Shown: piece after piece, positions 1-23,758 of the stretch
Position numbering within the stretch: position 1 is the first letter of the stretch
Layout of the letters: each line of letters opens with the position of its first letter
From: Phycisphaera mikurensis NBRC 102666
GTDB lineage: Bacteria; Planctomycetota; Phycisphaerae; Phycisphaerales; Phycisphaeraceae
Length of the DNA stretch: 32,000 nt
Reading direction: 5' to 3'
Assembly: GCF_000284115.1 (NCBI RefSeq)
Contig: NC_017081.1
Coordinates: 1-32,000 of the forward strand
Notes under the pieces: generated by a model
What the model saw: the letters and a program-made list of their open reading frames with translations, nothing else
Database searches by the model: none
Told to the model about the DNA's origin: nothing
Made by a program: the position numbers and the translations under genes

Positions 1-939
1 TCAGCGACCGCCTCGCCCTCGATCGCGGAGCACGTTCAGCACCGCCTCCACCTTCCCAACCGCCTGACGCCATCGTTCGGCGTCGTCCTTGCGGAGCCGT
101 TCCAGGTTCACACGCTTCCACCTCACGGCCGGCAACTCCATCACCTCCGCCAAGGGGGGCGACCCCGCCTCCGCCCTGAGTCGCACGAACCCAAGTAGCG
201 CCGCCCGCTCACGGTTCCTCAGCAGATCGGGCAGCGTGTCCCGCAGGTTCTCCAGCGTCCGGGCGTGATCCTTCACCGAGAACGGGTCCCGCGCCATCCC
301 GGCGAAGGCGCGCTCGAAGGCGGGGCCGGGGTCCTGTATCCGCGGATCCAAGATCTCGTCCGGCGGCCGGCTCGAGCTGAGCACGGCCGCCAGGAACGCC
401 ACCCGCAGCTCATCGCCCGCACCCTCGGCCGCGAGCCGGTCGAGGATGAAACGGGTATCGAAGAGGTCGCGCGGGTGCTGACGATCCAGCGCCGCCACCA
501 GCTTCCCGGCGAAGACCTCCGCCTCGTTCACCACTGGCATCGCCACGAAGCGCCCGAAGCGCTCTTGGGCTGAAGCGCAGAGCACCCGCTCCTCCGGCGG
601 GAAGAGCGATCCCCGCATCATCTTGCTCACTTCAACCTTCACCACCGCGTCCCGGGTCCGGGCCAGCAGCTTGCACTCCGCTCGTTGCACGGTCGCCCGG
701 ATGCCCAGCGGATCGAGCCTGCCCGCCACGCGGTGAAGCGCCCCCACAATCTCCGCGAGGGCCGCCTCCCGCGGCTTGCGTGGGAGATAGGTGAGGTCCA
801 GGTCGATCGACAGCCGCGGCATGTCGCGCCGGAACAGGTTGATCGCCGTCCCGCCCTTGAGGGCGAAGCAGGCCTCGGCTGCCACGGTTGGGGCCACCCG
901 CAGCAGCAGGTCCACCTGACGCTCATACGCCGCCTTCAA
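1..939 (-). CDS. abiEii: AbiEii/AbiGii-family nucleotidyltransferase toxin (type IV toxin-antitoxin / abortive infection)
   Basis: ORF track 1..1068(-). FALKGGTAINLF and SIDLDLTY match the hGG...DxD nucleotidyltransferase core of AbiEii (DUF1814). TTG at 939-937 overlaps the TGA (938-936) of the upstream ORF (TTGA junction), so I place the start there. ATG 1068 would add a Gly/Arg-rich extension overlapping abiEi. Confidence 0.8.
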   Translation of the reverse strand: MKAAYERQVDLLLRVAPTVAAEACFALKGGTAINLFRRDMPRLSIDLDLTYLPRKPREAALAEIVGALHRVAGRLDPLGIRATVQRAECKLLARTRDAVVKVEVSKMMRGSLFPPEERVLCASAQERFGRFVAMPVVNEAEVFAGKLVAALDRQHPRDLFDTRFILDRLAAEGAGDELRVAFLAAVLSSSRPPDEILDPRIQDPGPAFERAFAGMARDPFSVKDHARTLENLRDTLPDLLRNRERAALLGFVRLRAEAGSPPLAEVMELPAVRWKRVNLERLRKDDAERWRQAVGKVEAVLNVLRDRGRGGR

Positions 940-1739
940 GGCTGGTCCTCCCCCAGCAGTTTCGCCGGCACCGAGACCCGCTGCGCCGGCACGTACACCC
1001 CGCCGCCGGCGACCTGCACCTTCCCCGGCCCCGGCCCCAGGCCGGTGAGGTCCAGGTGCCGAAACCACGGGTGCCTGGCCCGCTCCGCGAGCACCAGGAA
1101 CACCCGCACCACCCGCTGCAGCCGGCAGGCCCGCAGCAGCTCCGCGAGCCGCCTTGGGCGGAGGTCAACCAAGCCCTCGATGAGGTGCCGCAGCGTCTCG
1201 GCGTCCACTGCTTCGGGGAAACGGAGCACCGCCTCGAGGATCGCCCGCTCGGCCGACGACACCGCGAGGTCGAAGCCCTCCACCGCGAGCGTCTCCACCC
1301 CCGCCGCGTCTGCGTCGGTCCCGCCCGCGGGCAGGCTGGAACTCCGCACGACCTCCAGGCTCGCCGCCGCATGCAGGCGGCCAAGCCACGCCGGCACCCC
1401 CACACCCGGTGGCCCGAAGAGCGTCACGCCTCCCGCCGCGCCCTCGCCGAGCGTCAGCGTGTGCGTCCGCCCACGGAGCATCAACGCCGCCACCGACCCG
1501 ATGTGCACGGGGAGGTGCAGCTGCCGCTGCAGTACCTGCACCACCCCAGGCCACCGAACCTCCTGCCCCGGCCGCACGAACAGCCCGCGGTCGACGCGCT
1601 CCAGCCACCCGGAGCGGGCATAGTGCTGCTGCAGGTCCGCGGAAATGCCCAGCGACCGCAGGTGGCTCGCCGCCAGCGGCTCTCCGCGGGCCCCAGCCTG
1701 CTGGAGCAGTTGGAGATGGGTTGCTTCTCGCGTAGCCAC
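936..1739 (-). CDS. abiEi: AbiEi-family antitoxin / transcriptional regulator
   Basis: 267-aa ORF with GTG start at 1739. It has an N-terminal wHTH-like segment (LAASHLRSLGISADLQQHYARSGWLERVDRGLF) and the size and position (immediately upstream of and overlapping AbiEii) typical of AbiEi_4-type antitoxins. Confidence 0.7.
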   Translation of the reverse strand: MATREATHLQLLQQAGARGEPLAASHLRSLGISADLQQHYARSGWLERVDRGLFVRPGQEVRWPGVVQVLQRQLHLPVHIGSVAALMLRGRTHTLTLGEGAAGGVTLFGPPGVGVPAWLGRLHAAASLEVVRSSSLPAGGTDADAAGVETLAVEGFDLAVSSAERAILEAVLRFPEAVDAETLRHLIEGLVDLRPRRLAELLRACRLQRVVRVFLVLAERARHPWFRHLDLTGLGPGPGKVQVAGGGVYVPAQRVSVPAKLLGEDQP

Positions 1740-8219: not shown

Positions 8220-8505
8220 CGCATCGCTCCAAGGGGCACCGCTCGGGCGCCGGGTGTCGGGATGCAGGGGTCGCGCGAATCTCACGCTCTCGGGCCAACA
8301 CGTTTTTGGCCCCTCCCTGCACAAGCAGGGAGGGAGGGGTCAAAACACGCAGCTCTCACCGGGCTGCCGCCCGGAGCGACCGCAGCGCGGGCACGCCATA
8401 ACGGAGGCGAGGAGGGCGGGAGGATCTGATCGCAGCGCAGCGGAGAACTCCACGCGGAGCGAGGAGGCGGGTCAGATCCGAGTGGCCGACGAGCCGACGG
8501 CGGGG
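8220..8505. promoter_or_regulatory. Structured leader element R1 upstream of radC
   Basis: Contains bulged hairpin H1 (8307-8342), the conserved AGCGACCG block, long-range stem GGATCTGA (8422-8429)/TCAGATCC (8472-8479), and distal block CGACGGCGGGG. Paralogous to R2 and R3. Confidence 0.65.
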
Positions 8506-8580
8506 CGTGACGGCGCGGAGGAAGAGGAGGGCGGTGGCCCGGTGCGGCCAGCCGGTCCCCTCGGGGGCCGGCGTTCCTTC
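8490..8580. repeat. About 90-nt repeat at the distal edge of R1 (partner of 14996-15083)
   Basis: CGAGCCGACGGCGGGGCGTGACGGCGCGGAGGAAGAGGAGGGCGGTGGCCCGGTGCGGCCAGCCGG...GGCGTTCCTT aligns by eye, with few mismatches and one small indel, to 14996-15083. Confidence 0.6.
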
Positions 8581-10030: not shown

Positions 10031-10335
10031 GGCGAACTCCTGGAGCCCACAAGGGGCGGGATGAATCGCAGGGGCTACGCGTGTCGCTGCACGCTCCGGG
10101 CCAAGCCATTGCTTTTGGCCCTCCCTGCGCAGGCAGGGAGGGAGGGCCAACAGCAACCAACACAGGGGGCTCTCCCGGGGCGAAGCGACCGAGAGGCGGG
10201 AACGGCATGACGGAGCGGGACGGGGCCTCTGGGATCTGATCGCCCCAGCCGACGCAGTCGGCTCGGGCGACCGCGAAGCGGCGGGTCAGATCACGAGCCC
10301 CTCGCCCCGCGACGGCGGGACGTTCAGGCCGTCAG
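10031..10335. promoter_or_regulatory. Structured leader element R2 upstream of ardC
   Basis: H1 at 10115-10150 (14 bp with a 4-nt AGGG bulge), AGCGACCG block, stem GATCTGA (10233-10239)/TCAGATC (10286-10292) enclosing the perfect inner hairpin AGCCGAC-gca-GTCGGCT, and distal block CGACGGCGGGACG. Collinear with R1 almost throughout. Confidence 0.65.
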
Positions 10336-12536: not shown

Positions 12537-14258
12537 ATGCCACGGCTCCAGCACCTCTCCAGCGGCGACCGCAACTGCCGGTTCATGCCCGTCGACCGGC
12601 GGGTGCCTTTCCGACTCAGTGCGTTCTGGCGGCACCTCGACGACCTCGGGCTGACCCATCCAGACCGGCTGGATCCGGAGCGTCTGATCCGGCGTGGTTG
12701 GCTCCGCCCTCTGTTCACCCTCTCCGCGGAGAAGGCTGGCTCTGAGGACGCCCCCAGCCGGGTCGATCTCTGGCTCGGCACCCGCCTCGGCGACCGCTTC
12801 GACTCCTTTGCAGGCGACTGGTGGTCGGCTGACCTGGACCGGGTCGAAGACCCCGACACCGACGCGATCCTGGCGGCCGGCCGGGAGCCGACCGCCCCCC
12901 AAGCGGGCGAAGAAGACGATTGGCACGCGGACCGGATCGAGGTCTACCGGTACCACCAGGCCTTCCTGGTTGCCGATTTGCAGGAGCGCTGCACGTCCCG
13001 GAGCGACCCCCTCGCGTGCGATCTCGACGGGGCGCACGCGGCGCTGCAAAGCAACCAGCAGCGTCAAGCCCGCGAAGCCGCTGCCGTTCGAAAGCAGTGG
13101 GCAGACATCGCACCCGTCCTCGACCGCGTCTCGCTCTGGCGGACCGCCGTGAGCACCCACGCATTCCCGGGCCTGACGCCGGCGGACGGATCCGACGCCT
13201 GGGTCTGGGCCGACGCGGAAGCCGACCTGCTCGCTCGCGACGCCGAGACCGGCGCGGCGTGGGAGGAGGACATCCGCGCCGCGTACCTGACGACCTGGGA
13301 GCGGTGGCGGAGGATGCTCCCCGGGGGGCCGCTCGCCTCCCCCAAGCTCGTCGGCCTGTTCCGCCAGGACGTGCAGCACGCGATCGCGGCTGCAGAGACC
13401 ACCACCGGGCAAAGCGTCGACTTCCTCGACGAAACTTGGGACTACGGGCGCCCCTGGCACGCGGACGCGAGCAGGGGTCGCCGCTCCTGGGCGAGGCTGC
13501 TGGAGGTGCTGCCCTTCGAAGAAGACGTCGCGATGGTGGAGTTTCCCGTGCGGGCCCGCATCTACCTCCGCGGCCTCCAGCACATGGCGTGTCGAACGCT
13601 CGACGAGACCGACCTCTTCCAGGCCGTCTCGCCGGTCCGGCACCGGCCACTCGTCAACCGCATCCTCCTGAGCTTCCGCCGCACGCACGAGGACCTCGAT
13701 GTGAGTCTCAGCAGCGACCCGAGAGCCGTCCTCCCAGCGAAGGAGCGGATCACCAGCATCCACCAGACCCTCCTTGACCTCGAGAAGGCGCTCATCGCCT
13801 GGAGCATCCGGGTCACGAACCCGGCGAAGGAGCCAGACCTCAGAAAGTGCATGAAGCAACTGCTCGGATTCATGCTGGACCAGCAGGGCTGGTCTGGTGG
13901 GGAGATCGCCACCCGGAAGGGACAGCTCGAGAAGCTCTGCGAGGGACGCAGTGGGAGCAAGGCGCACATCACAGGCGAGCTTCCGCTCATCGACATGGCC
14001 GATGTTCCGCAGGCGCCGCCGGCGTTGCAGGAGTTCTTCATCGCCGCGGTCAACTTCCTCGTGGGCCGGAACCACGCCGCGCACAGCTCCAGCGTCGATC
14101 GATCCATCATCTATGTGCAAAAGGACGAGGAGCGGGACGAGCACGTCGGCGGGCGGATCCTCACCGGCGCTCTCGTGGTGTTCATGGAGCTGACGGCCGC
14201 CCTCGCTGAGGAGGCGGGAACGGCTGCTACCGGCACCGGTGGTGAAGCCTGCTCCTGA
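12537..14258 (+). CDS. Hypothetical 573-aa protein with C-terminal HEPN-like RNxxAH motif
   Basis: Long ATG ORF of diverse composition that starts 25 nt after the RND remnant stop. About 60 residues from the C-terminus, FLVGRNHAAHSS fits the Rx4-6H (RNxxAH) HEPN signature in a helical context. No other domain recognised. Confidence 0.7.
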   Translation: MPRLQHLSSGDRNCRFMPVDRRVPFRLSAFWRHLDDLGLTHPDRLDPERLIRRGWLRPLFTLSAEKAGSEDAPSRVDLWLGTRLGDRFDSFAGDWWSADLDRVEDPDTDAILAAGREPTAPQAGEEDDWHADRIEVYRYHQAFLVADLQERCTSRSDPLACDLDGAHAALQSNQQRQAREAAAVRKQWADIAPVLDRVSLWRTAVSTHAFPGLTPADGSDAWVWADAEADLLARDAETGAAWEEDIRAAYLTTWERWRRMLPGGPLASPKLVGLFRQDVQHAIAAAETTTGQSVDFLDETWDYGRPWHADASRGRRSWARLLEVLPFEEDVAMVEFPVRARIYLRGLQHMACRTLDETDLFQAVSPVRHRPLVNRILLSFRRTHEDLDVSLSSDPRAVLPAKERITSIHQTLLDLEKALIAWSIRVTNPAKEPDLRKCMKQLLGFMLDQQGWSGGEIATRKGQLEKLCEGRSGSKAHITGELPLIDMADVPQAPPALQEFFIAAVNFLVGRNHAAHSSSVDRSIIYVQKDEERDEHVGGRILTGALVVFMELTAALAEEAGTAATGTGGEACS

Positions 14259-14312: not shown

Positions 14313-14738
14313 ATGCCGAAGAGGACGACCCTGCTTGCTCCGAGGCTGCTGCTCGCCGTGCCGCTCGCGCTGGCGATCGCGGGTGTTCTCCTCTCCCCGT
14401 GGTTCGACGAGCCCACCATCTCAACGGTGACCAGCGCGGGCTTCGTCGTACACGCTTCGGAAGCCTCCTCCGGTGTGGCCGGGCGGCTGGAAGACGCTCC
14501 GGCCGCGGCGCCGCGTCCGGGGTGGCTGGCCGCACACCACGCGGTCGTCGCTTCGAACGATCCCGGCGCGACCCGAGACGCGAAGCGTGTCCTCCTGCTC
14601 TTCGGCCTGGCCGCGGCGCTGGTGATCGTCCTCGTCGCGCCGGTGTCCCGCGGGTCTCCGTCGCTGGGGCCTTGGCTCCCGCCATCCCCTCACGGCCGGG
14701 TCGTGGAGGCACCGCCCGCACCGAACTTCCATCCGTGA
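14313..14738 (+). CDS. Small putative membrane protein (141 aa, two predicted TM helices)
   Basis: ATG at 14313 preceded by GGAAGG. Hydrophobic stretches are LLLAVPLALAIAGVLLSPWF and VLLLFGLAAALVIVLVAPV. No homology recognised. Confidence 0.45.
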   Translation: MPKRTTLLAPRLLLAVPLALAIAGVLLSPWFDEPTISTVTSAGFVVHASEASSGVAGRLEDAPAAAPRPGWLAAHHAVVASNDPGATRDAKRVLLLFGLAAALVIVLVAPVSRGSPSLGPWLPPSPHGRVVEAPPAPNFHP

Positions 14739-14995
14739 GGCCTGAGCCCCTCGCACCGGGCCGAAGCCCGGCGCGTCGAGACACCTTCATCGTCCGGACC
14801 GCACGACATCCTCTGAATTTGCTTCTTGGCTTCACGGGCGACCTTGGGATCCGAGCGGCGGCATCGAGCTTGATCGCCACCGATCTGCCCGGCTGCGCGG
14901 GGAGGCCGTACGTCGACACCGTCGACCTGAAGATGGAGGTCCGGGCGGAAGCACGAGCGGCCCGAGCCGCTCCCGACGGAGCGGCGAGCAACAGA

Positions 14996-15083
14996 CGAGC
15001 CGACGGCGAGGCATGACGGCGCGCCAGAAGAGAAGGGCGGTGGACCGGTGCAGCCAGCCGGACCCCGGAGGCGGCGTTCCTTT
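14996..15083. repeat. Partial (distal-half only) copy of the R1-type element
   Basis: CGAGCCGACGGCGAGGCATGACGGCGCGCCAGAAGAGAAGGGCGGTGGACCGGTGCAGCCAGCCGGACCCCGGAGGCGGCGTTCCTT aligns to 8490-8580. The H1 hairpin and GATCTGA stem are absent. Confidence 0.55.
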
Positions 15084-15199
15084 CCTCTCTGCACAATGGA
15101 TTAGAGACTTGACCTCCGTTCCCGGCCCAGGAAGCGAGGCCTCACGCGGCTCAATCCATAAACGCCTGCGCGTGACCGGCGTCCTTGGCTTCCACTGCA

Positions 15200-17038
15200 A
15201 TGATCGGCCGCATGGAGTACACCATCGAGCGGTTCATGTGGAGCTATCAGGCACACTTCCGCATGGCCGCGGAGTTTGCGGCCGAAGGCGTGGCGAAGCA
15301 ACTGGGTCTGGAGCTTGAGCCAGAGGTCTTCCTGGTGGGTCTGCGGGTCGAGGAGCCCGCGGCGGTTGTTCATGCGGCTTGCGTGGAGCCAGAGGATCAC
15401 CACTGGGCCGATTCGGCAAGCATGGATCACCTCGCCGAGGAGATCGAAGCGGAGGTCAAGCGGGACCCGGCTGCGGAGATGTTCATCAGCCACCCCGTTG
15501 GGGCACGGCGTTACGCGGAGGGGCTGCGTGCCGCCGCCGTGCGGCGCCTCATCCTCGGACACCTCGAAGCCTGCGACCACCGGCCGCCCGGCCGACGCAT
15601 CCTCGTGTCCGGGGCGGTCCGCCGCGACGACCACTGGATCTGCATGGTGTTGACCGTGGACGAGCGGGTGTGGGAGGCCGTGCCCTCCATCGAGATGACC
15701 GGGCGGGAGGACCACCGCGGCAGCGTGTACCACGTCCCCGCGAGCCTCGCCGAAGCGGCGGTGAGGGAACTCTTCGCCGAAGTCTCGCGTGCTTTGACGA
15801 TGCCCGATGCCGGATCGGATCTGCACTTCCTCGACGCCTACGACGAACTCCTTCGAAGGGCTGGCGCGCGGTTCTTCTTCGGGCTGATCTCCCGGGGAGG
15901 CTTCGGGCAGCGGGGTGACACGCGGCAGTTTGCCGCTCTCGACGGTCTCTCGCTCGCGGCCTATGAGAAGCAGGAGGCCCGGGGGCGCATCGTCTTGCTC
16001 GGGCCCCTCGCGGCCGCGTCCGACGACGCATGGGCACCGCCTCTTTCGATCCGGTTCCGGGAGCCCCTCTCGATCCACAACCTCCGCGGCCTGCGGAAGG
16101 TGCTTTCCCTCACCAATGATTCCACCGCCGCGGTCTGCACGCCGGACGGTGTGATCGGCACCGCGTCCGGAGTGGGGAGCGCCGAGCCCGTTGCCGGCCG
16201 GCCGGTTCTGGCGTGCTTTGAGGGCCGAGCGGCGTGGAGCGTCCACGCGGAGGGCCGGGAGCTGATGCGGATTGAAGACGGCCGCCCCGGGCTTCCCGCT
16301 CAGCCTCTTGAACCCGTCGACTTCGCCTTCGAGCTCCGCCGGCGGGTGCCGGGGCTCGGGCGGCAAGACGCGGACGCTCTTGCCGGCCTTGCCACGACGC
16401 TCGCTGGCGCCGACCACGGGGCCGTGCTGGTGGTGACACCCGACGCGGCGGCGGAAGCGGGGCGGCTGCAGGCGACCTCATTGCCCATCGAGCCTGTCAC
16501 GTTGACCGAGCCACTGGCGCTGACCTTCGCCGGCATCGACGGGGCCACCCTCTGCGACGCCCGGATGCAGGTGCACGCCATCGGTGTGATCCTCGACGGG
16601 CTCGCCACCGAGAAGGGCGATCCCGCCCGCGGCGCCCGCCTCAACGCGACTCTGCGGTACGTCGAGTCGAGCCCGGGGCGTCGCTGCGCCATGGTGGTTT
16701 CGGAGGACGGAGGGATCGAACTGCTCCCGAAGCTCAAGCCAGCCGTCCACCCCGAGGAACGCCGTGCGGCTCTTGCCGAGCTGGCGCGGCTAGCCGACGA
16801 TGACCCCGAGCGTCACGCCCGCAAAGATGAGCTGGCGGCCATTGAGCGCGTCCGGCGTTGCGCTCACACGCTCGAAGATGATCACTGCGCAGCCGCAAAC
16901 CGGGACCTCGCGTCCATCGAGAGCCGATTCTACAAGGACGCCGAGTTCAAGATCACGACGCCGCCTTGGCGGGTGGACCCGTCTTTTGCGCCGGAGCGAG
17001 ACCTGCGAGAAGACGCGCCGCGAACCACGCAAGACTGA
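15200..17038 (+). CDS. Hypothetical protein with C-terminal diadenylate-cyclase-like (DisA_N/DAC fold) domain, RHR motif degenerate
   Basis: Track ORF 15185..17038; ATG candidates at 15200 and 15212. The C-terminal region HGAVLVV...IDGATLCD...VHAIGVIL...GARLNATLRY...AMVVSEDGGIELL is collinear with the CdaA/DisA motifs GALIVI...HDGAVII...AAAGCYL...GTRHRAA...IVVSEETGGISL. The N-terminal two-thirds is unrecognised. Confidence 0.7.
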   Translation: MIGRMEYTIERFMWSYQAHFRMAAEFAAEGVAKQLGLELEPEVFLVGLRVEEPAAVVHAACVEPEDHHWADSASMDHLAEEIEAEVKRDPAAEMFISHPVGARRYAEGLRAAAVRRLILGHLEACDHRPPGRRILVSGAVRRDDHWICMVLTVDERVWEAVPSIEMTGREDHRGSVYHVPASLAEAAVRELFAEVSRALTMPDAGSDLHFLDAYDELLRRAGARFFFGLISRGGFGQRGDTRQFAALDGLSLAAYEKQEARGRIVLLGPLAAASDDAWAPPLSIRFREPLSIHNLRGLRKVLSLTNDSTAAVCTPDGVIGTASGVGSAEPVAGRPVLACFEGRAAWSVHAEGRELMRIEDGRPGLPAQPLEPVDFAFELRRRVPGLGRQDADALAGLATTLAGADHGAVLVVTPDAAAEAGRLQATSLPIEPVTLTEPLALTFAGIDGATLCDARMQVHAIGVILDGLATEKGDPARGARLNATLRYVESSPGRRCAMVVSEDGGIELLPKLKPAVHPEERRAALAELARLADDDPERHARKDELAAIERVRRCAHTLEDDHCAAANRDLASIESRFYKDAEFKITTPPWRVDPSFAPERDLREDAPRTTQD

Positions 17039-17077: not shown

Positions 17078-17239
17078 TCAAGCCCACGCCGACTCCGCCC
17101 GCTTCATCGCGATCCGCTTCGCGGTGTAGAACAGCACCGGGTAGAGCAGAAGCTCCGCGACGAAGCTGGTGGTCAGCCCGCCGGGCGTGGGCGCGGCGAG
17201 CCGCTGCACCGTGCTGGCGCTGACGCGGGTGGCGATCGC
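17078..17239 (-). pseudogene. Truncated 3' remnant of a second cusA-like gene (direct repeat of the cusA 3' end)
   Basis: The minus-strand frame reads IATRVSASTVQRLAAPTPGGLTTSFVAELLLYPVLFYTAKRIAMKRAESAWA*, versus the intact CusA C-terminus FATGAGSDTMQRLAAPMIGGLATSFVAELLLYPVLFYSAKRIAMKRDAS*. Nucleotide similarity to 20066-20230 is obvious. The fragment starts right at the copB stop. Confidence 0.8.
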
Positions 17240-20065: not shown

Positions 20066-23000
20066 TCAGGAGGCGTCTCGCTTCATCGCGATCCGCTTGG
20101 CGGAGTAGAAGAGCACCGGGTAGAGCAGCAGCTCGGCGACGAAGCTGGTGGCGAGACCGCCGATCATCGGGGCGGCGAGGCGCTGCATCGTGTCGGAGCC
20201 GGCGCCGGTCGCGAAGAGCAGCGGCATCAGGCCGATGAAGGTGGTCATCACCGTCATCGTCTTGGGTCGGATCCGCTGGACGGCGCCGTCGTGGACGGCG
20301 TGCATCAGGTCGTCGGTCGTGTTCAGCCGGCCCTCGCGCTTGAAGCGCTCGTGGCTGTCGTCGAGGTAGAGCAGCATCACCAGGCCGGTCTCGGCGTCGA
20401 GCCCGGCGAGTGCGATGACGCCCACCCACACGGCCAGCGACATGTCGTAGCCGAGGAACCAGGTGAACCACGCGGCGCCGATCAGCGAGAAGGGCACGGC
20501 GAGCAGCACGATGCCCACCCGCAGCCAGCTCCGCGTGGCGACGAAGAGCAGGAGCAGGATCACCACCGCGGCCAGCGGGATCGCGAGTTGCAGCCGCTCC
20601 CGGGCGTCCTGCATGTACTCGTACTGGCCCGACCAGCGGACGGTGTAGCCCGGCGGCAGCTCCAGCCGCTCGGCCACGACGGCCTGCGCCGCCTCGACGA
20701 AGGTGCCGATGTCGGTGTCCTTGATGTCGACGTACACCCAGCTGGTCGGCCGGGCGTCCTCGCTCTTGATCATCGGCGGCCCACGCCGGATGACGACCTT
20801 GGCGAGCTGGCCCAGCGGGACCTGAGCGCCGCCGGGCGTGGCGACGAGCACCTTCTCCAGCGACTCGGGGTCGTCGCGCAGCTCCCGCGGGTAGCGGAGG
20901 CTCACCGGGTAGCGCTCCAGCCCCTCCACCGTGGAGGTGACGTTCATGCCGCCCACCGCGGTCATCACCACGTCCGCCAGGTCGCCCGAGGAGAGCCCGT
21001 AGCGGGCGATCGCCTCGCGGTCCACGTCCAGGTCGAGGTAGTTGCCCCCGACGGTCTTGTCCGGGAAGGCGCTGGCGAGCGTGGTGCGGGTCCGCTCGTC
21101 GGTCTTCAGGAGGTCGGCGACCTCGCCGGCCAGGTCCGAGAGCACGGTGAGGTCCGGGCCCATGATCTTCACGCCCACCGGCGTGCGGATGCCGGTGGAG
21201 AGCATGTCGATCCGGGTGCGGATCGGCATCGTCCAGGCGTTGGAGAGCCCGGGGATCTGCAGGGCGTCGTTCATGCCCGGGATGCGGAAGCCCCTGCCGC
21301 CCCGGTCGACGCCGAGCTGCGCGTCGGTGAGTTCGTACCCGTAGATCAGCTCGTCGGGGGTGATCGTCCGCGTGGGCGGCAGCAGCTTCGAGGGCGCCCA
21401 CGCCAGCCAGCCGGGCCAGCCGGAGTAGAAGCGCTCCACCGGCCGCTTCCGCCACGCCACCTCGTCGCGGTGGAGCGTGATCGTCGTCTCGAGCATCGAC
21501 ACCGGCGCCGGGTCGGTCGCGGTCTCGGCCCGGCCGATCTTCCCGAAGACGTGCTCGACCTCGGGGAAGGCGGCGATCAGCGCGTCGGTCTGCGCCAGCA
21601 GCTCGGTCGCCTTGGAGACGCTGATCCCCGGATCGGTGGTGGGCATGTACAGGAGGTCGCCCTCCTCCAGCGGCGGCATGAACTCCGAGCCCAGCTTCGA
21701 CCAGGGGTAGAGCGTGCTGCTCATCAGGAGCGCCGCGATCAGGATCGTCAGCGCCCGGTGCTTCATCGTGAAGCGGAAGAAGGGCTCGTAGGCGGCGCGG
21801 ATCACCCGGCTGATCGGGTTGTCGTCCTCGTTGGAGATCCGCTGCCGCGGGACGAGCAGGAGCACGGCCAGGGCGCCGCCGACCGCAACGAGCCAGCGGC
21901 TGTCCTCCAGCGCCCCCAGCGGGAGGAAGGCGAAGAGACCGAAGGTTCCCACCGCGCAGAGCGCCGCGACCCACTTCCGGGGGCCGCCCTCGCGGAGCGT
22001 GTACACCATCACCACCGGGATCAGCGTGACGGCCACGCCCGCGGCGGCGGCCATGGCGAAGGTCTTGGTGTACGCCAGCGGCTTGAAGAGCCGGCCGCTC
22101 TGGCCGTCGAGCACGAAGATCGGCAGGAAGCTGACCATGATGATCAGCAGCGAGAAGAACAGCGTGGGGCCGACCTCCGCCGAGGCGTCGGCGATCACCG
22201 ACGCGTGGCTGCGCGGCGGCTCGCCCGCCTCGCGCTGGTGGTGCTCTCGCTCCAGGTGCTTGTGCGCGTTCTCGACCATCACGATCGAGCTGTCCACCAT
22301 CACGCCGATCGAGATCGCGATGCCGCCCAGGCTCATGATGTTCGCGTTCAGGCCCAGCGCGTACATGACGCCCAGCGTGAGCAGCACCCCCGCGGGCAGC
22401 ACCAGCGCGGCGACCAGGGCGCTGCGGGCGTGCAGCAGGAAGATCAGGATGACGCAGCCGACCACGAGGATCTCCTCGGTCAGCGTCCCGGTGACGGTGT
22501 GGATCGCCCGCTCGATGAGGTCGCTACGGTCGTAGGCGACCTCGACCGCCACGCCGGGCGGCAGGCCCTCCTCCAGCTCGAAGAGCCGATCGCGGACGCG
22601 GCCGATCGTCGCCTGGGCGTTCTCGCCGAAGCGCATGATGACCACGCCGCCGGCGGTCTCGCCCTCCCCGTCCCACTCGGCGACGCCGCGGCGGATCTCC
22701 GGGCCGATGGCGACCTCGGCGACGTCGCGGAGGTAGATCGGAGCGCCGTCTTCGTTCGCCCCCAGCGAGATCGAGCGGAGGTCTTCGAGCACCCGGTCGG
22801 TCTGTTCCCGCCCCAGGGCGTCTTCCGCGGACCCCTCCGTGGGGTCTCCCGTGCCGAGGTAGCCGCGGCCGCGGACCATGAACTCGGTCTCGCCGCGCTC
22901 CACCACGCGGCCGCCTACATCGCGGTTGCTCCGCTGAATGGCCGCACGGACCTTGCCCAGCGGGAGCCCATACGCCAGCAGCCGGTTGGGGTCGACCGTC

Positions 23001-23758
23001 ACCTGGTACTGCTTCACGAAGCCGCCGATGGCGGCGACCTCGCTCACGCCCTGCACCGTCGTCAACTCGTAGCGGAGGTACCAGTCTTGGAGGCTCCGCA
23101 GCTCGGCGAGGCTCACGTCCGGCTTCGCCAGCGGCGAGCCGTCCAGCGGACAAACCTCCGCGTCGTGGTCGAAGACGCGAACCCGTTTGGTTTCGATCCC
23201 ATCGGGCTTCTCCGCAAACCACTCCGCCTCGCCCCCGTGAGCACCGTCCGCTCTCCAGAGGCCATCGGGGTGGTCCGGGCACCAGGGCCCGGTGGTGAGC
23301 ACGTACTGGTAGACCCAGCCCACGGCGGTCGCGTCGGGACCGAGCTGGGGCGACACCCCCTCGGGCAGCCGGGCGTTCACCACCGAGAGCTGCTCGAGCA
23401 CGCGGCTGCGGGCCCAGTACAGGTCCGTCCCGTCGGCGAAGATGATGTAGACGAAGCTCGTGCCGAACATCGAGTACCCGCGCACGACCTGGGCGTCGGG
23501 CACCGCGAGCATCGCGGTCGTCAGGGGGTAGGTCACCTGGTCCTGCACGATCCCCGGGGCCTGTCCCGGGAACTCGGTCCGCACGACCACCTGCACGTCG
23601 GAGAGGTCCGGCAGCGCATCGACGGTGATGTGCCGCGCGGCGTACACGCCGCCCACGGCGGTGATCGCGGCGAGCAGCAACACGAGCAGGCGGTTGGCCA
23701 CGCAGGCGCGGATCAGCTTCGCGGTGAAGCCTTCCCTGGCGTTGGGGTCAGCGAGCAT
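20066..23758 (-). CDS. cusA: CusA/CzcA-family heavy-metal RND efflux permease
   Basis: 1230-aa ORF with full-length RND architecture. The N-terminus FTAKLIRACVANRLLVLLLA and C-terminus are typical of CusA. The start overlaps the cusB end. Confidence 0.95.
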   Translation of the reverse strand: MLADPNAREGFTAKLIRACVANRLLVLLLAAITAVGGVYAARHITVDALPDLSDVQVVVRTEFPGQAPGIVQDQVTYPLTTAMLAVPDAQVVRGYSMFGTSFVYIIFADGTDLYWARSRVLEQLSVVNARLPEGVSPQLGPDATAVGWVYQYVLTTGPWCPDHPDGLWRADGAHGGEAEWFAEKPDGIETKRVRVFDHDAEVCPLDGSPLAKPDVSLAELRSLQDWYLRYELTTVQGVSEVAAIGGFVKQYQVTVDPNRLLAYGLPLGKVRAAIQRSNRDVGGRVVERGETEFMVRGRGYLGTGDPTEGSAEDALGREQTDRVLEDLRSISLGANEDGAPIYLRDVAEVAIGPEIRRGVAEWDGEGETAGGVVIMRFGENAQATIGRVRDRLFELEEGLPPGVAVEVAYDRSDLIERAIHTVTGTLTEEILVVGCVILIFLLHARSALVAALVLPAGVLLTLGVMYALGLNANIMSLGGIAISIGVMVDSSIVMVENAHKHLEREHHQREAGEPPRSHASVIADASAEVGPTLFFSLLIIMVSFLPIFVLDGQSGRLFKPLAYTKTFAMAAAAGVAVTLIPVVMVYTLREGGPRKWVAALCAVGTFGLFAFLPLGALEDSRWLVAVGGALAVLLLVPRQRISNEDDNPISRVIRAAYEPFFRFTMKHRALTILIAALLMSSTLYPWSKLGSEFMPPLEEGDLLYMPTTDPGISVSKATELLAQTDALIAAFPEVEHVFGKIGRAETATDPAPVSMLETTITLHRDEVAWRKRPVERFYSGWPGWLAWAPSKLLPPTRTITPDELIYGYELTDAQLGVDRGGRGFRIPGMNDALQIPGLSNAWTMPIRTRIDMLSTGIRTPVGVKIMGPDLTVLSDLAGEVADLLKTDERTRTTLASAFPDKTVGGNYLDLDVDREAIARYGLSSGDLADVVMTAVGGMNVTSTVEGLERYPVSLRYPRELRDDPESLEKVLVATPGGAQVPLGQLAKVVIRRGPPMIKSEDARPTSWVYVDIKDTDIGTFVEAAQAVVAERLELPPGYTVRWSGQYEYMQDARERLQLAIPLAAVVILLLLFVATRSWLRVGIVLLAVPFSLIGAAWFTWFLGYDMSLAVWVGVIALAGLDAETGLVMLLYLDDSHERFKREGRLNTTDDLMHAVHDGAVQRIRPKTMTVMTTFIGLMPLLFATGAGSDTMQRLAAPMIGGLATSFVAELLLYPVLFYSAKRIAMKRDAS

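Follow-up and report, generated by a model that had tools for sequence, protein, structure and literature searches.

The stretch analysed here, which we call the window, comprises the 32,000 nucleotides at positions 1 to 32,000 of contig NC_017081.1 (assembly GCF_000284115.1) of the planctomycete Phycisphaera mikurensis NBRC 102666. Our subject is a gene at 15200-17038 on the forward strand, which an exact-sequence look-up identified as BAM05384.1 (PSMK_p00220), located on an ~81-kb plasmid. The existing labels of its product are "hypothetical protein" and, in UniRef, "DAC domain-containing protein", where DAC stands for diadenylate cyclase. The sequence comparisons and the predicted structure described below indicate that PSMK_p00220 is a divergent but intact protein of the CdaG (DS-2C) family, with DACNG, DACNH, and DAC domains followed by a helical bundle.

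The open reading frame (ORF) has a GC content of 0.75/0.50/0.82 at the three codon positions, which is a clear coding signature, and a 99%-identical copy, called with 612 amino acids, is present in the same gene arrangement on a metagenome contig (L001). An earlier interpretation made from the letters alone (hereafter, the sequence-only reading) described a 617-aa protein at 15200-17038. The ORF stands, but the length does not, because translation from the ATG at 15200 gives 612 residues and the 617-aa version needs a TTG start upstream, at 15185. A scan for promoters and terminators around the gene found none. The gene and the features of its product are as follows.

15200..17038, forward strand: coding sequence for a CdaG-family diadenylate cyclase (612 residues, ATG start)
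15236..15874, forward strand: DACNG domain, a putative sensor module, residues 13-225 (Pfam PF21752, E=6.1e-54)
15926..16249, forward strand: DACNH domain, residues 243-350 (Pfam PF21750, E=1.8e-16)
16307..16735, forward strand: DAC catalytic domain, residues ~370-512 (assigned by DAC fold; under the Pfam sequence threshold)
16538..16546, forward strand: DGA motif, D447-G448-A449 (from the translation; D and G invariant in 79/79 sequences)
16628..16645, forward strand: RGARLN, residues 477-482, counterpart of the canonical GTRHR (R477, G478, R480, and N482 invariant)
16700..16708, forward strand: S501-E502-D503 of VVSEDGG, which is VVSEETG in CdaA (S and D invariant)
16751..17002, forward strand: C-terminal helical bundle, residues 518-601, ~90 aa (DSSP on the AlphaFold2 model)

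Domain architecture and family assignment

The N-terminal region of about 400 residues had been taken as unrecognised. About 365 residues of it are accounted for by the Pfam domains DACNG and DACNH, which belong to the named CdaG/DS-2C architecture. The DACNG match (183.6 bits against a cutoff of 27) covers profile positions 1-207 of 208, and the AlphaFold2 (AF2) model has a predicted local distance difference test score (pLDDT) above 90 in this domain. The DACNH match scores 60.4 bits against a cutoff of 27, and the family-invariant residues Glu256, Arg299, Lys300, and Trp346 are all kept. The combination of DACNG, DACNH, and DAC defines the CdaG family of Galperin (2023, J Bacteriol 205:e0002323), as cited in later papers, and a C-terminal helix bundle is likewise described for CdaG. 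In addition, the NCBIfam model NF053872 (DS2_3_antiphage) aligns with PSMK_p00220 over model positions 1-572 of 576 (395.2 bits, E=4.1e-118). The layout is indeed unlike those of DisA, CdaA, CdaS, and DacZ, as the sequence-only reading had noted, but it is not novel, since the family was named in 2023.

When residues 1-365 were modelled alone, AF2 gave a pLDDT of 91.4 and a predicted template modelling score (pTM) of 0.91. A Foldseek search of this model against the Protein Data Bank (PDB) returned no significant relative (best E=0.12), and the proposal of Galperin that DACNH is a degenerate DAC domain was not recovered by Foldseek. The full-length model likewise had no significant match among viral proteins (best E=0.015). 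A weak but recurrent likeness to the HUH nuclease domains of parvoviral NS1/Rep was considered and rejected because the HSHP consensus is poorly conserved (~55-60%) and is absent from PSMK_p00220, which has ISHP.

The isolated C-terminal region of PSMK_p00220 did not match the Pfam DAC profile PF02457 even at E≤10, and sequence searches of the PDB with the whole protein, the DAC region, and a family profile yielded nothing relevant. Nevertheless, three independent lines of evidence establish residues ~370-512 as a genuine, sequence-divergent DAC domain. First, the full-length AF2 model, built on 79 family sequences (mean pLDDT 87.9, pTM 0.85), gave 59 Foldseek matches in the PDB at E≤1e-3, and the 50 listed were all DisA, CdaA, DacA, or CdaM, with E values of 5e-6 to 3e-4 for DisA and CdaA. 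Bacillus subtilis CdaA (6huw_A) superimposed with a root-mean-square deviation (rmsd) of 2.4 Å over 123 columns and a template modelling score normalised by the target (TMt) of 0.66; the CdaA structures overall gave an rmsd of 2.4-2.9 Å over 122-133 columns (TMt 0.57-0.67). Second, six of nine homologues tested passed the Pfam DAC gathering threshold (36-48 bits against a cutoff of 27), and the matched positions align column for column with query residues ~395-505. Third, the DAC region of one homologue (P0008) was the only one to reach PDB entry 2fb5 (E=0.019), which we take to be the DAC domain of a CdaA-type enzyme from Bacillus cereus. The P0008 and 2fb5 blocks pair as HGtmlVV/HGALIVV, DGAVL/DGAVL, GaRfNsA/GTRHRAA, and VVSEdgG/VVSEETG, and the residues of PSMK_p00220 fall in the same columns.

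The cryptic DAC domain spotted by the sequence-only reading is thus borne out by fold and transitive homology, and the motif blocks that it listed are real and correctly aligned with the canonical ones. Of the checks that it proposed, comparison of a predicted structure with CdaA and DisA gave the DAC fold; the search with the Pfam DisA_N profile gave no direct match to the protein itself, whereas homologues scored above threshold in the same columns. The domain is not at the extreme C-terminus, as had been supposed, because the helical bundle follows it. Forms of 483 residues that lack this bundle are conserved across many Hymenobacter species.

Compared with CdaA/DacA and DisA (PDB 6huw, 4rv7, 3c1y, and 9y4s), PSMK_p00220 shares the predicted catalytic fold, the DGA motif, the VVSE-x-G motif, and the Gly-x-Arg with which the RHR block begins. 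In contrast, the canonical enzymes have RHR and HDGA where PSMK_p00220 has R-L-N and IDGA, and its DACNG/DACNH module of ~365 residues has no counterpart in them. CdaA has transmembrane helices, whereas none is predicted in PSMK_p00220, in agreement with the earlier claim, and the helix-hairpin-helix DNA-binding domain of DisA is also missing.

Conserved residues and relatives of PSMK_p00220

In the alignment of 79 family members, the counterpart of the RHR block reads R-G-[AS]-R-[YF]-N-S, in which both arginines, the glycine, and the asparagine are invariant, and RHR occurs in none. A second sample of 92 genome-derived sequences gave the same picture (R in 91/92 and N in 91/92). The middle position is usually Tyr or Phe, and Leu, as in Leu481 of PSMK_p00220, is present in 5/92 members. 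One example of Leu outside P. mikurensis is the RGSRLNN of a Streptomyces turgidiscabies member that is linked to a CD-NTase, a cGAS-like nucleotidyltransferase. The DAC domain of Flagellimonas okinawensis (L034) has RGSRYNS and contains DGG instead of DGA, and all Hymenobacter homologues inspected have RYN. These alignments indicate that R-x-N in place of RHR is a hallmark of the family and compatible with activity. It is no sign of inactivation because it is common to relatives from species whose enzymes are reported active. The A-RLN motif had been read as a possible mark of altered specificity or of a non-catalytic protein, an interpretation that the universality of R-x-N in CdaG does not support. 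Among positions conserved in at least 90% of 91 relatives, PSMK_p00220 keeps 47/52, including Asp447, Gly448, Arg477, Gly478, Arg480, Asn482, Arg486, Ser501, and Asp503.

The family is large. When 1.84 billion cluster representatives were searched exhaustively with phmmer, 1,847 clusters passed E≤1e-3 and 378 passed E≤1e-30, and a genome scan found at least 582 CdaG loci across many phyla, including one methanogen. In a neighbour-joining tree, PSMK_p00220 groups with L002, L003, L014 (Phycisphaeraceae), and L078 (Isosphaeraceae). An all-against-all comparison of flanking ORFs detected no conserved partner gene in this clade. Other sampled relatives adjoin transposases, an integrase, TraG, or SNF2 with DUF4391. 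The copy in the Isosphaeraceae metagenome-assembled genome (L078, 8001-9780) is an apparent pseudogene, with a fragmented ORF that deviates at 22 near-invariant positions; it adjoins RelA/SpoT-like, S1/P1 nuclease, and IS21 IstB genes.

The same architecture is encoded by the third gene of DS-2, a defence system of a patatin phospholipase, a cGAS-like CD-NTase, and a DAC protein, which was validated in Escherichia coli (DefensePredictor, Science 2026, PMC13092281). Two catalytic mutations in the DAC protein abolish DS-2 defence, and 15 of 30 DAC homologues lie next to a cyclic oligonucleotide-based antiphage signalling system (CBASS) (PMC13092281). In an independent study of the same arrangement as CBASS-DAC, or Liu-DS2 (Nucleic Acids Research 2026, PMC13069673), the DAC protein was proposed to sense infection and to make the signal that activates the patatin phospholipase. 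The cGAS component was dispensable against two phages, and Acb1 blocked immunity, which the authors attribute to degradation of the signal (PMC13069673). The DS-2C proteins of F. okinawensis, H. elongatus, and H. wooponensis are reported to make nucleotide signals robustly in vitro; for the latter two, cyclic di-AMP (c-di-AMP) was identified by liquid chromatography-mass spectrometry (10.64898/2026.08.10.743927). The authors state that the immune role of the DS-2C proteins remains to be defined (10.64898/2026.08.10.743927).

The patatin, nucleotidyltransferase, and DAC arrangement is also present around relatives on Citrobacter IncC/IncP and Gluconobacter plasmids (30-32% identity). Using the partner proteins of these plasmid relatives as CD-NTase and patatin probes (phmmer, followed by profiles, with a hidden Markov model (HMM) from 18 DAC-linked nucleotidyltransferases), we found a CD-NTase immediately upstream of the DAC gene in at least 16 of 80 loci from species-representative genomes, some of them also with a patatin; this count is a lower bound, as divergent CD-NTases could escape the probe. 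The linked members fall mainly in an actinobacterial and a proteobacterial clade, which are separate from that of PSMK_p00220 in the neighbour-joining tree. Neither phmmer nor the HMM found a CD-NTase in the window or at L001-L003, L014, and L078, and Pfam searches of the neighbouring ORFs gave none either. A PADLOC search with the DAC protein and the neighbouring unannotated ORFs gave no match, with a 2023 release that predates DS-2.

PSMK_p00220 has the same domain order as CdaG over the full length, the motif R-G-[AS]-R-[YFL]-N-S, and the invariant residues of the three domains, but differs in a DAC domain under the Pfam threshold, a nearest relative of 40% identity, Leu481, Val458, and His-Thr at 556-557. 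With DS-2C it is homologous end to end and, like the copies on the Citrobacter and Gluconobacter conjugative plasmids, is located on mobile DNA; in contrast, it scores below the equivalog cutoff, lacks the system-defining adjacent CD-NTase or patatin, and belongs to a separate clade. PanS of the Panoptoo/PanDA systems is likewise a DAC protein outside housekeeping that is tied to defence islands and mobile elements (10.64898/2026.08.10.743927, 10.64898/2026.08.10.743972). However, the PanS proteins are minimal DACs of ~150 residues that have a 2TM-beta effector as partner and constitutively produce a decoy signal, whereas PSMK_p00220 is four times their size, carries N-terminal domains that resemble sensors, and lacks an adjacent 2TM-beta effector.

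A short "diadenylate cyclase" on a Bacillus toyonensis plasmid (NZ_CP103779.1, 100639-100968) aligns only with query residues 410-512, at 40% identity, which exceeds that of most full-length CdaG relatives. This short protein may represent a minimal DAC of the PanS type with kinship to the catalytic domain of CdaG.

The N-terminal module, the altered RHR, and the layout are defining features of CdaG that were known beforehand (described in 2023, with experiments in 2025-2026). What is particular to the PSMK_p00220 locus is the divergent and isolated lineage, the solitary gene without CBASS partners, and the plasmid location in a planctomycete. We regard these observations as of modest importance; the 2026 literature calls the biological role of CdaG/DS-2C an open question. 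Our survey adds that R-x-N is universal in the family, that about one-fifth of the sampled genome loci are CD-NTase-linked and clustered in particular clades, and that a separate clade, whose members of known source are mostly Planctomycetota (PSMK_p00220, L014, and L078), has no conserved partner, with contexts that range from a plasmid to a housekeeping chromosome. These points speak against treating each CdaG protein as a CBASS accessory. For annotation, "hypothetical protein" can be replaced by "CdaG-family diadenylate cyclase (DACNG/DACNH/DAC)", while an anti-phage label is unwarranted.

Proposed function and alternatives

We consider it somewhat probable, from sequence, model, and analogy with the relatives, that PSMK_p00220 acts as a sensor-gated c-di-AMP synthase that is a solitary cargo of the plasmid, located between its conjugation/anti-restriction region and a copper-resistance island, and has no effector in cis. 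The DAC domains of two protomers would pair face to face and condense two ATP molecules into 3'3'-c-di-AMP, a reaction proposed because the fold is that of a DAC, the catalytic set is kept, and relatives are reported to be active. The DACNG/DACNH module may gate the cyclase activity in response to a cue, since the DAC protein is proposed as the infection sensor in the CBASS-DAC literature. Because no cognate effector is encoded adjacent to the gene, the signal would act on receptors encoded elsewhere, which might speculatively be an effector in trans or the c-di-AMP-responsive machinery of the host.

Several observations weigh against this assignment. The score of PSMK_p00220 does not reach the equivalog cutoff of NF053872 (630 bits), and its DAC domain is under the Pfam threshold. 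The exceptions among the 52 near-invariant positions are V147I, L192F, C458V, F556H, and Y557T; thus, Cys458 is replaced by Val although Cys is present in 89/91 relatives, and the Phe-Tyr pair at 556-557 is replaced by His-Thr, in addition to the replacement of Tyr/Phe481 by Leu. The protein sits on a long branch, with a nearest relative beyond the 99%-identical twin of only 40% identity and nothing between. A search of the window and the adjoining 10 kb on the left, with the ~39 kb of plasmid to the right and the chromosome outside its range, found no effector, CD-NTase, or patatin. The nearest genome relative (L014) lies among the housekeeping genes dxs, polyprenyl synthetase, murG-like, and purE. 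Finally, the Hymenobacter sp. DG01 chromosome (L006, 2466-9273) has a CdaG gene by those for MscS, a ClC-CBS protein, and a Na+/H+ exchanger, an osmoregulatory neighbourhood that is reminiscent of classical c-di-AMP physiology. Because of these housekeeping and ion-channel contexts, the CdaG family is not uniformly defensive.

A more specific version of the sensor-gated synthase is a stand-alone anti-phage or anti-plasmid cyclase, in which infection would trigger c-di-AMP production and lead to abortive infection through an effector elsewhere or through toxicity. We hold this version as tentative, with the chances leaning against it. It would fit the validation of the DS-2/CBASS-DAC relatives and the requirement there for DAC activity (PMC13092281, PMC13069673), the reported enrichment of CdaG branches in antiphage and mobile genetic element neighbours (10.64898/2026.08.10.743972), and the ability of an orphan TIR-SAVED effector in Haloferax to respond to c-di-AMP of the host (10.1101/2025.06.19.660554). 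The plasmid location near an AbiE pair and ArdC, and the relatives located by TraG, SNF2 with DUF4391, transposases, and integrases, also favour defence. However, there is no effector in cis, PADLOC is empty for the neighbouring unannotated ORFs, no neighbouring gene is conserved within the clade, housekeeping genes surround the closest genome relative, and the equivalog threshold is missed. The conflict role suggested by the sequence-only reading is plausible in view of the DS-2 relatives, which the validated anti-phage system requires.

Alternatively, PSMK_p00220 might be an extra or alternative DAC enzyme that tunes ion, osmotic, or envelope homeostasis, possibly alongside the metal island. 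At least 64 of the 80 genome relatives have no adjacent CD-NTase detectable by our probe, a conserved copy is present in all Hymenobacter species, one of which is the osmoregulatory example above, and the L014 copy is located between dxs/polyprenyl synthetase and murG-like/purE. Furthermore, the DAC gene and the copper genes are ~100% conserved between the window and L001, whereas the upstream 573-aa gene has diverged. We nevertheless find a physiological role doubtful. The gene is on a plasmid, at the end of a long branch, and its GC content at third codon positions is 0.82, unlike the 0.94-0.96 of the adjacent copper-resistance genes. No c-di-AMP receptor or phosphodiesterase is encoded nearby, and the Rfam scan of the window gave no match and hence no riboswitch. 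The copper island is convergent with the DAC gene, with a cusA relic between them, and the arrangement resembles a junction of unrelated segments.

Solitary CdaG proteins, which form most of the family, might also be self-sufficient single-gene modules, whose DACNG/DACNH region detects an invader or stress and whose c-di-AMP surge arrests the cell or excludes competitors via host receptors, with no dedicated effector. This reading as a whole is a long shot. If it were true, the copy on the plasmid of P. mikurensis would offer an obvious way to test it, in a phylum with few known defence systems.

The alternative of the sequence-only reading, a dead relic or a pure nucleotide-binding sensor, could draw on the absence of a Pfam DAC match, Leu at the His-equivalent position, the C458V and Phe-Tyr to His-Thr replacements, and the long branch, but is unlikely, given the R-x-N motif common to relatives from species with enzymes reported active, the Leu of the CBASS-linked Streptomyces member, the retention of all DAC invariant residues amid the 47/52 near-invariant positions, and an intact ORF that is 99% conserved in an independent metagenome contig.

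Plasmid surroundings and neighbouring genes

The DAC gene lies where plasmid backbone or accessory DNA meets a metal island. Upstream, at 1-11 kb, are genes for AbiEi, an SprT-like protein, RadC, and ArdC, and just left of the window are those for AbiEii, ParA, an S26 peptidase, and a DUF3363 protein. The downstream genes run on the opposite strand and encode CopB, a multicopper oxidase, CusA, and CusB. The earlier placement of the gene between mobile-element DNA and a metal-resistance island is therefore correct. No plasmid in PLSDB matched the window in a megablast search. The AbiEi antitoxin (936-1739, reverse strand) and its cognate AbiEii just outside the window (L094, 10801-11739) form a complete AbiE abortive-infection/toxin-antitoxin pair. 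Three further features precede the DAC gene.

12537-14258, forward strand: gene for a 573-aa protein, a near-orphan
14313-14738, forward strand: 141-aa ORF with two transmembrane-like segments
14985-15066, no strand assigned: 82-nt intergenic repeat, 84% identical to 8479-8560 upstream of RadC

The repeat fragment that had been reported beside the DAC gene was found at these coordinates, and its similarity to the copy upstream of RadC ties the 5' region of the DAC gene to the mobile-element part of the plasmid. It matches no Rfam family. Further short repeats and GC-rich hairpins recur between genes in the mobile-element half (for example, 8305-8338 and 10113-10146), also with no Rfam family.

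The sequence-only reading placed the 573-aa, 141-aa, and DAC genes in one accessory cassette, and a system in which a HEPN-like protein, a membrane protein, and the cyclase act together would agree with their consecutive positions on one strand, the presence of the same trio in L001, the conserved Rx4H motif of the 573-aa protein, and the two transmembrane-like segments of the 141-aa ORF. This model is largely refuted, and we give it hardly any weight, as no independent co-occurrence with the DAC gene was found. The trio in L001 is the same element and not independent evidence. Among 5.8 billion proteins, the 573-aa protein has two homologues, one of them in L001; the sole independent one (L010, 10001-12354; 47% identity) belongs to another metal-resistance island, away from any DAC gene, and the gene directly after it encodes a SieB-domain (superinfection exclusion) protein. 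The closest DAC relatives have no counterpart of the 141-aa ORF next to them, and their upstream genes, which encode a 2TM/zinc-ribbon protein and an apparent IS200/REP-type transposase, are unrelated. The 141-aa ORF also proved unrelated to the small proteins encoded upstream in L002 and L003 and to the SieB-like protein of L010. In addition, the 141-aa ORF and the DAC gene are 461 bp apart, with the dispersed repeat in the gap, and a recombination breakpoint appears to fall within the 141-aa ORF.

The breakpoint is suggested by the comparison of the window with L001. The two are ~100% identical from ~14460 rightwards, including the DAC gene and copB onward, and identity falls to the left of this position, with the 573-aa protein only ~91% identical.

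The C-terminal motif VNFxVGRNHAAHSxSVD of the 573-aa protein, which contains the HEPN-like RNHAAH (Rx4H), is conserved in all three sequences. This motif is the sole support for the HEPN-like label; searches of Pfam, NCBIfam, and PADLOC gave no match to the protein. The 573-aa protein and the SieB-domain protein of the L010 type may constitute a separate, undescribed two-gene exclusion module.

The 136-nt segment at 17100-17235, which separates the DAC gene from copB, is a relic of the cusA 3' end (20079-20214; 84% identity). Because this relic copies the cusA 3' end, the multicopper oxidase/copB pair is bracketed by direct repeats, a scar left in the copper island by an insertion or duplication. 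The CusA-like RND (resistance-nodulation-division) pump itself (20066-23758, reverse strand) has 1,230 residues compared with ~1,045 in a typical CusA and matches ACR_tran in four stretches, which suggests insertions relative to typical CusA. Its public annotations differ in length, with versions of 1,230 and 1,211 residues and a 700-aa partial one.

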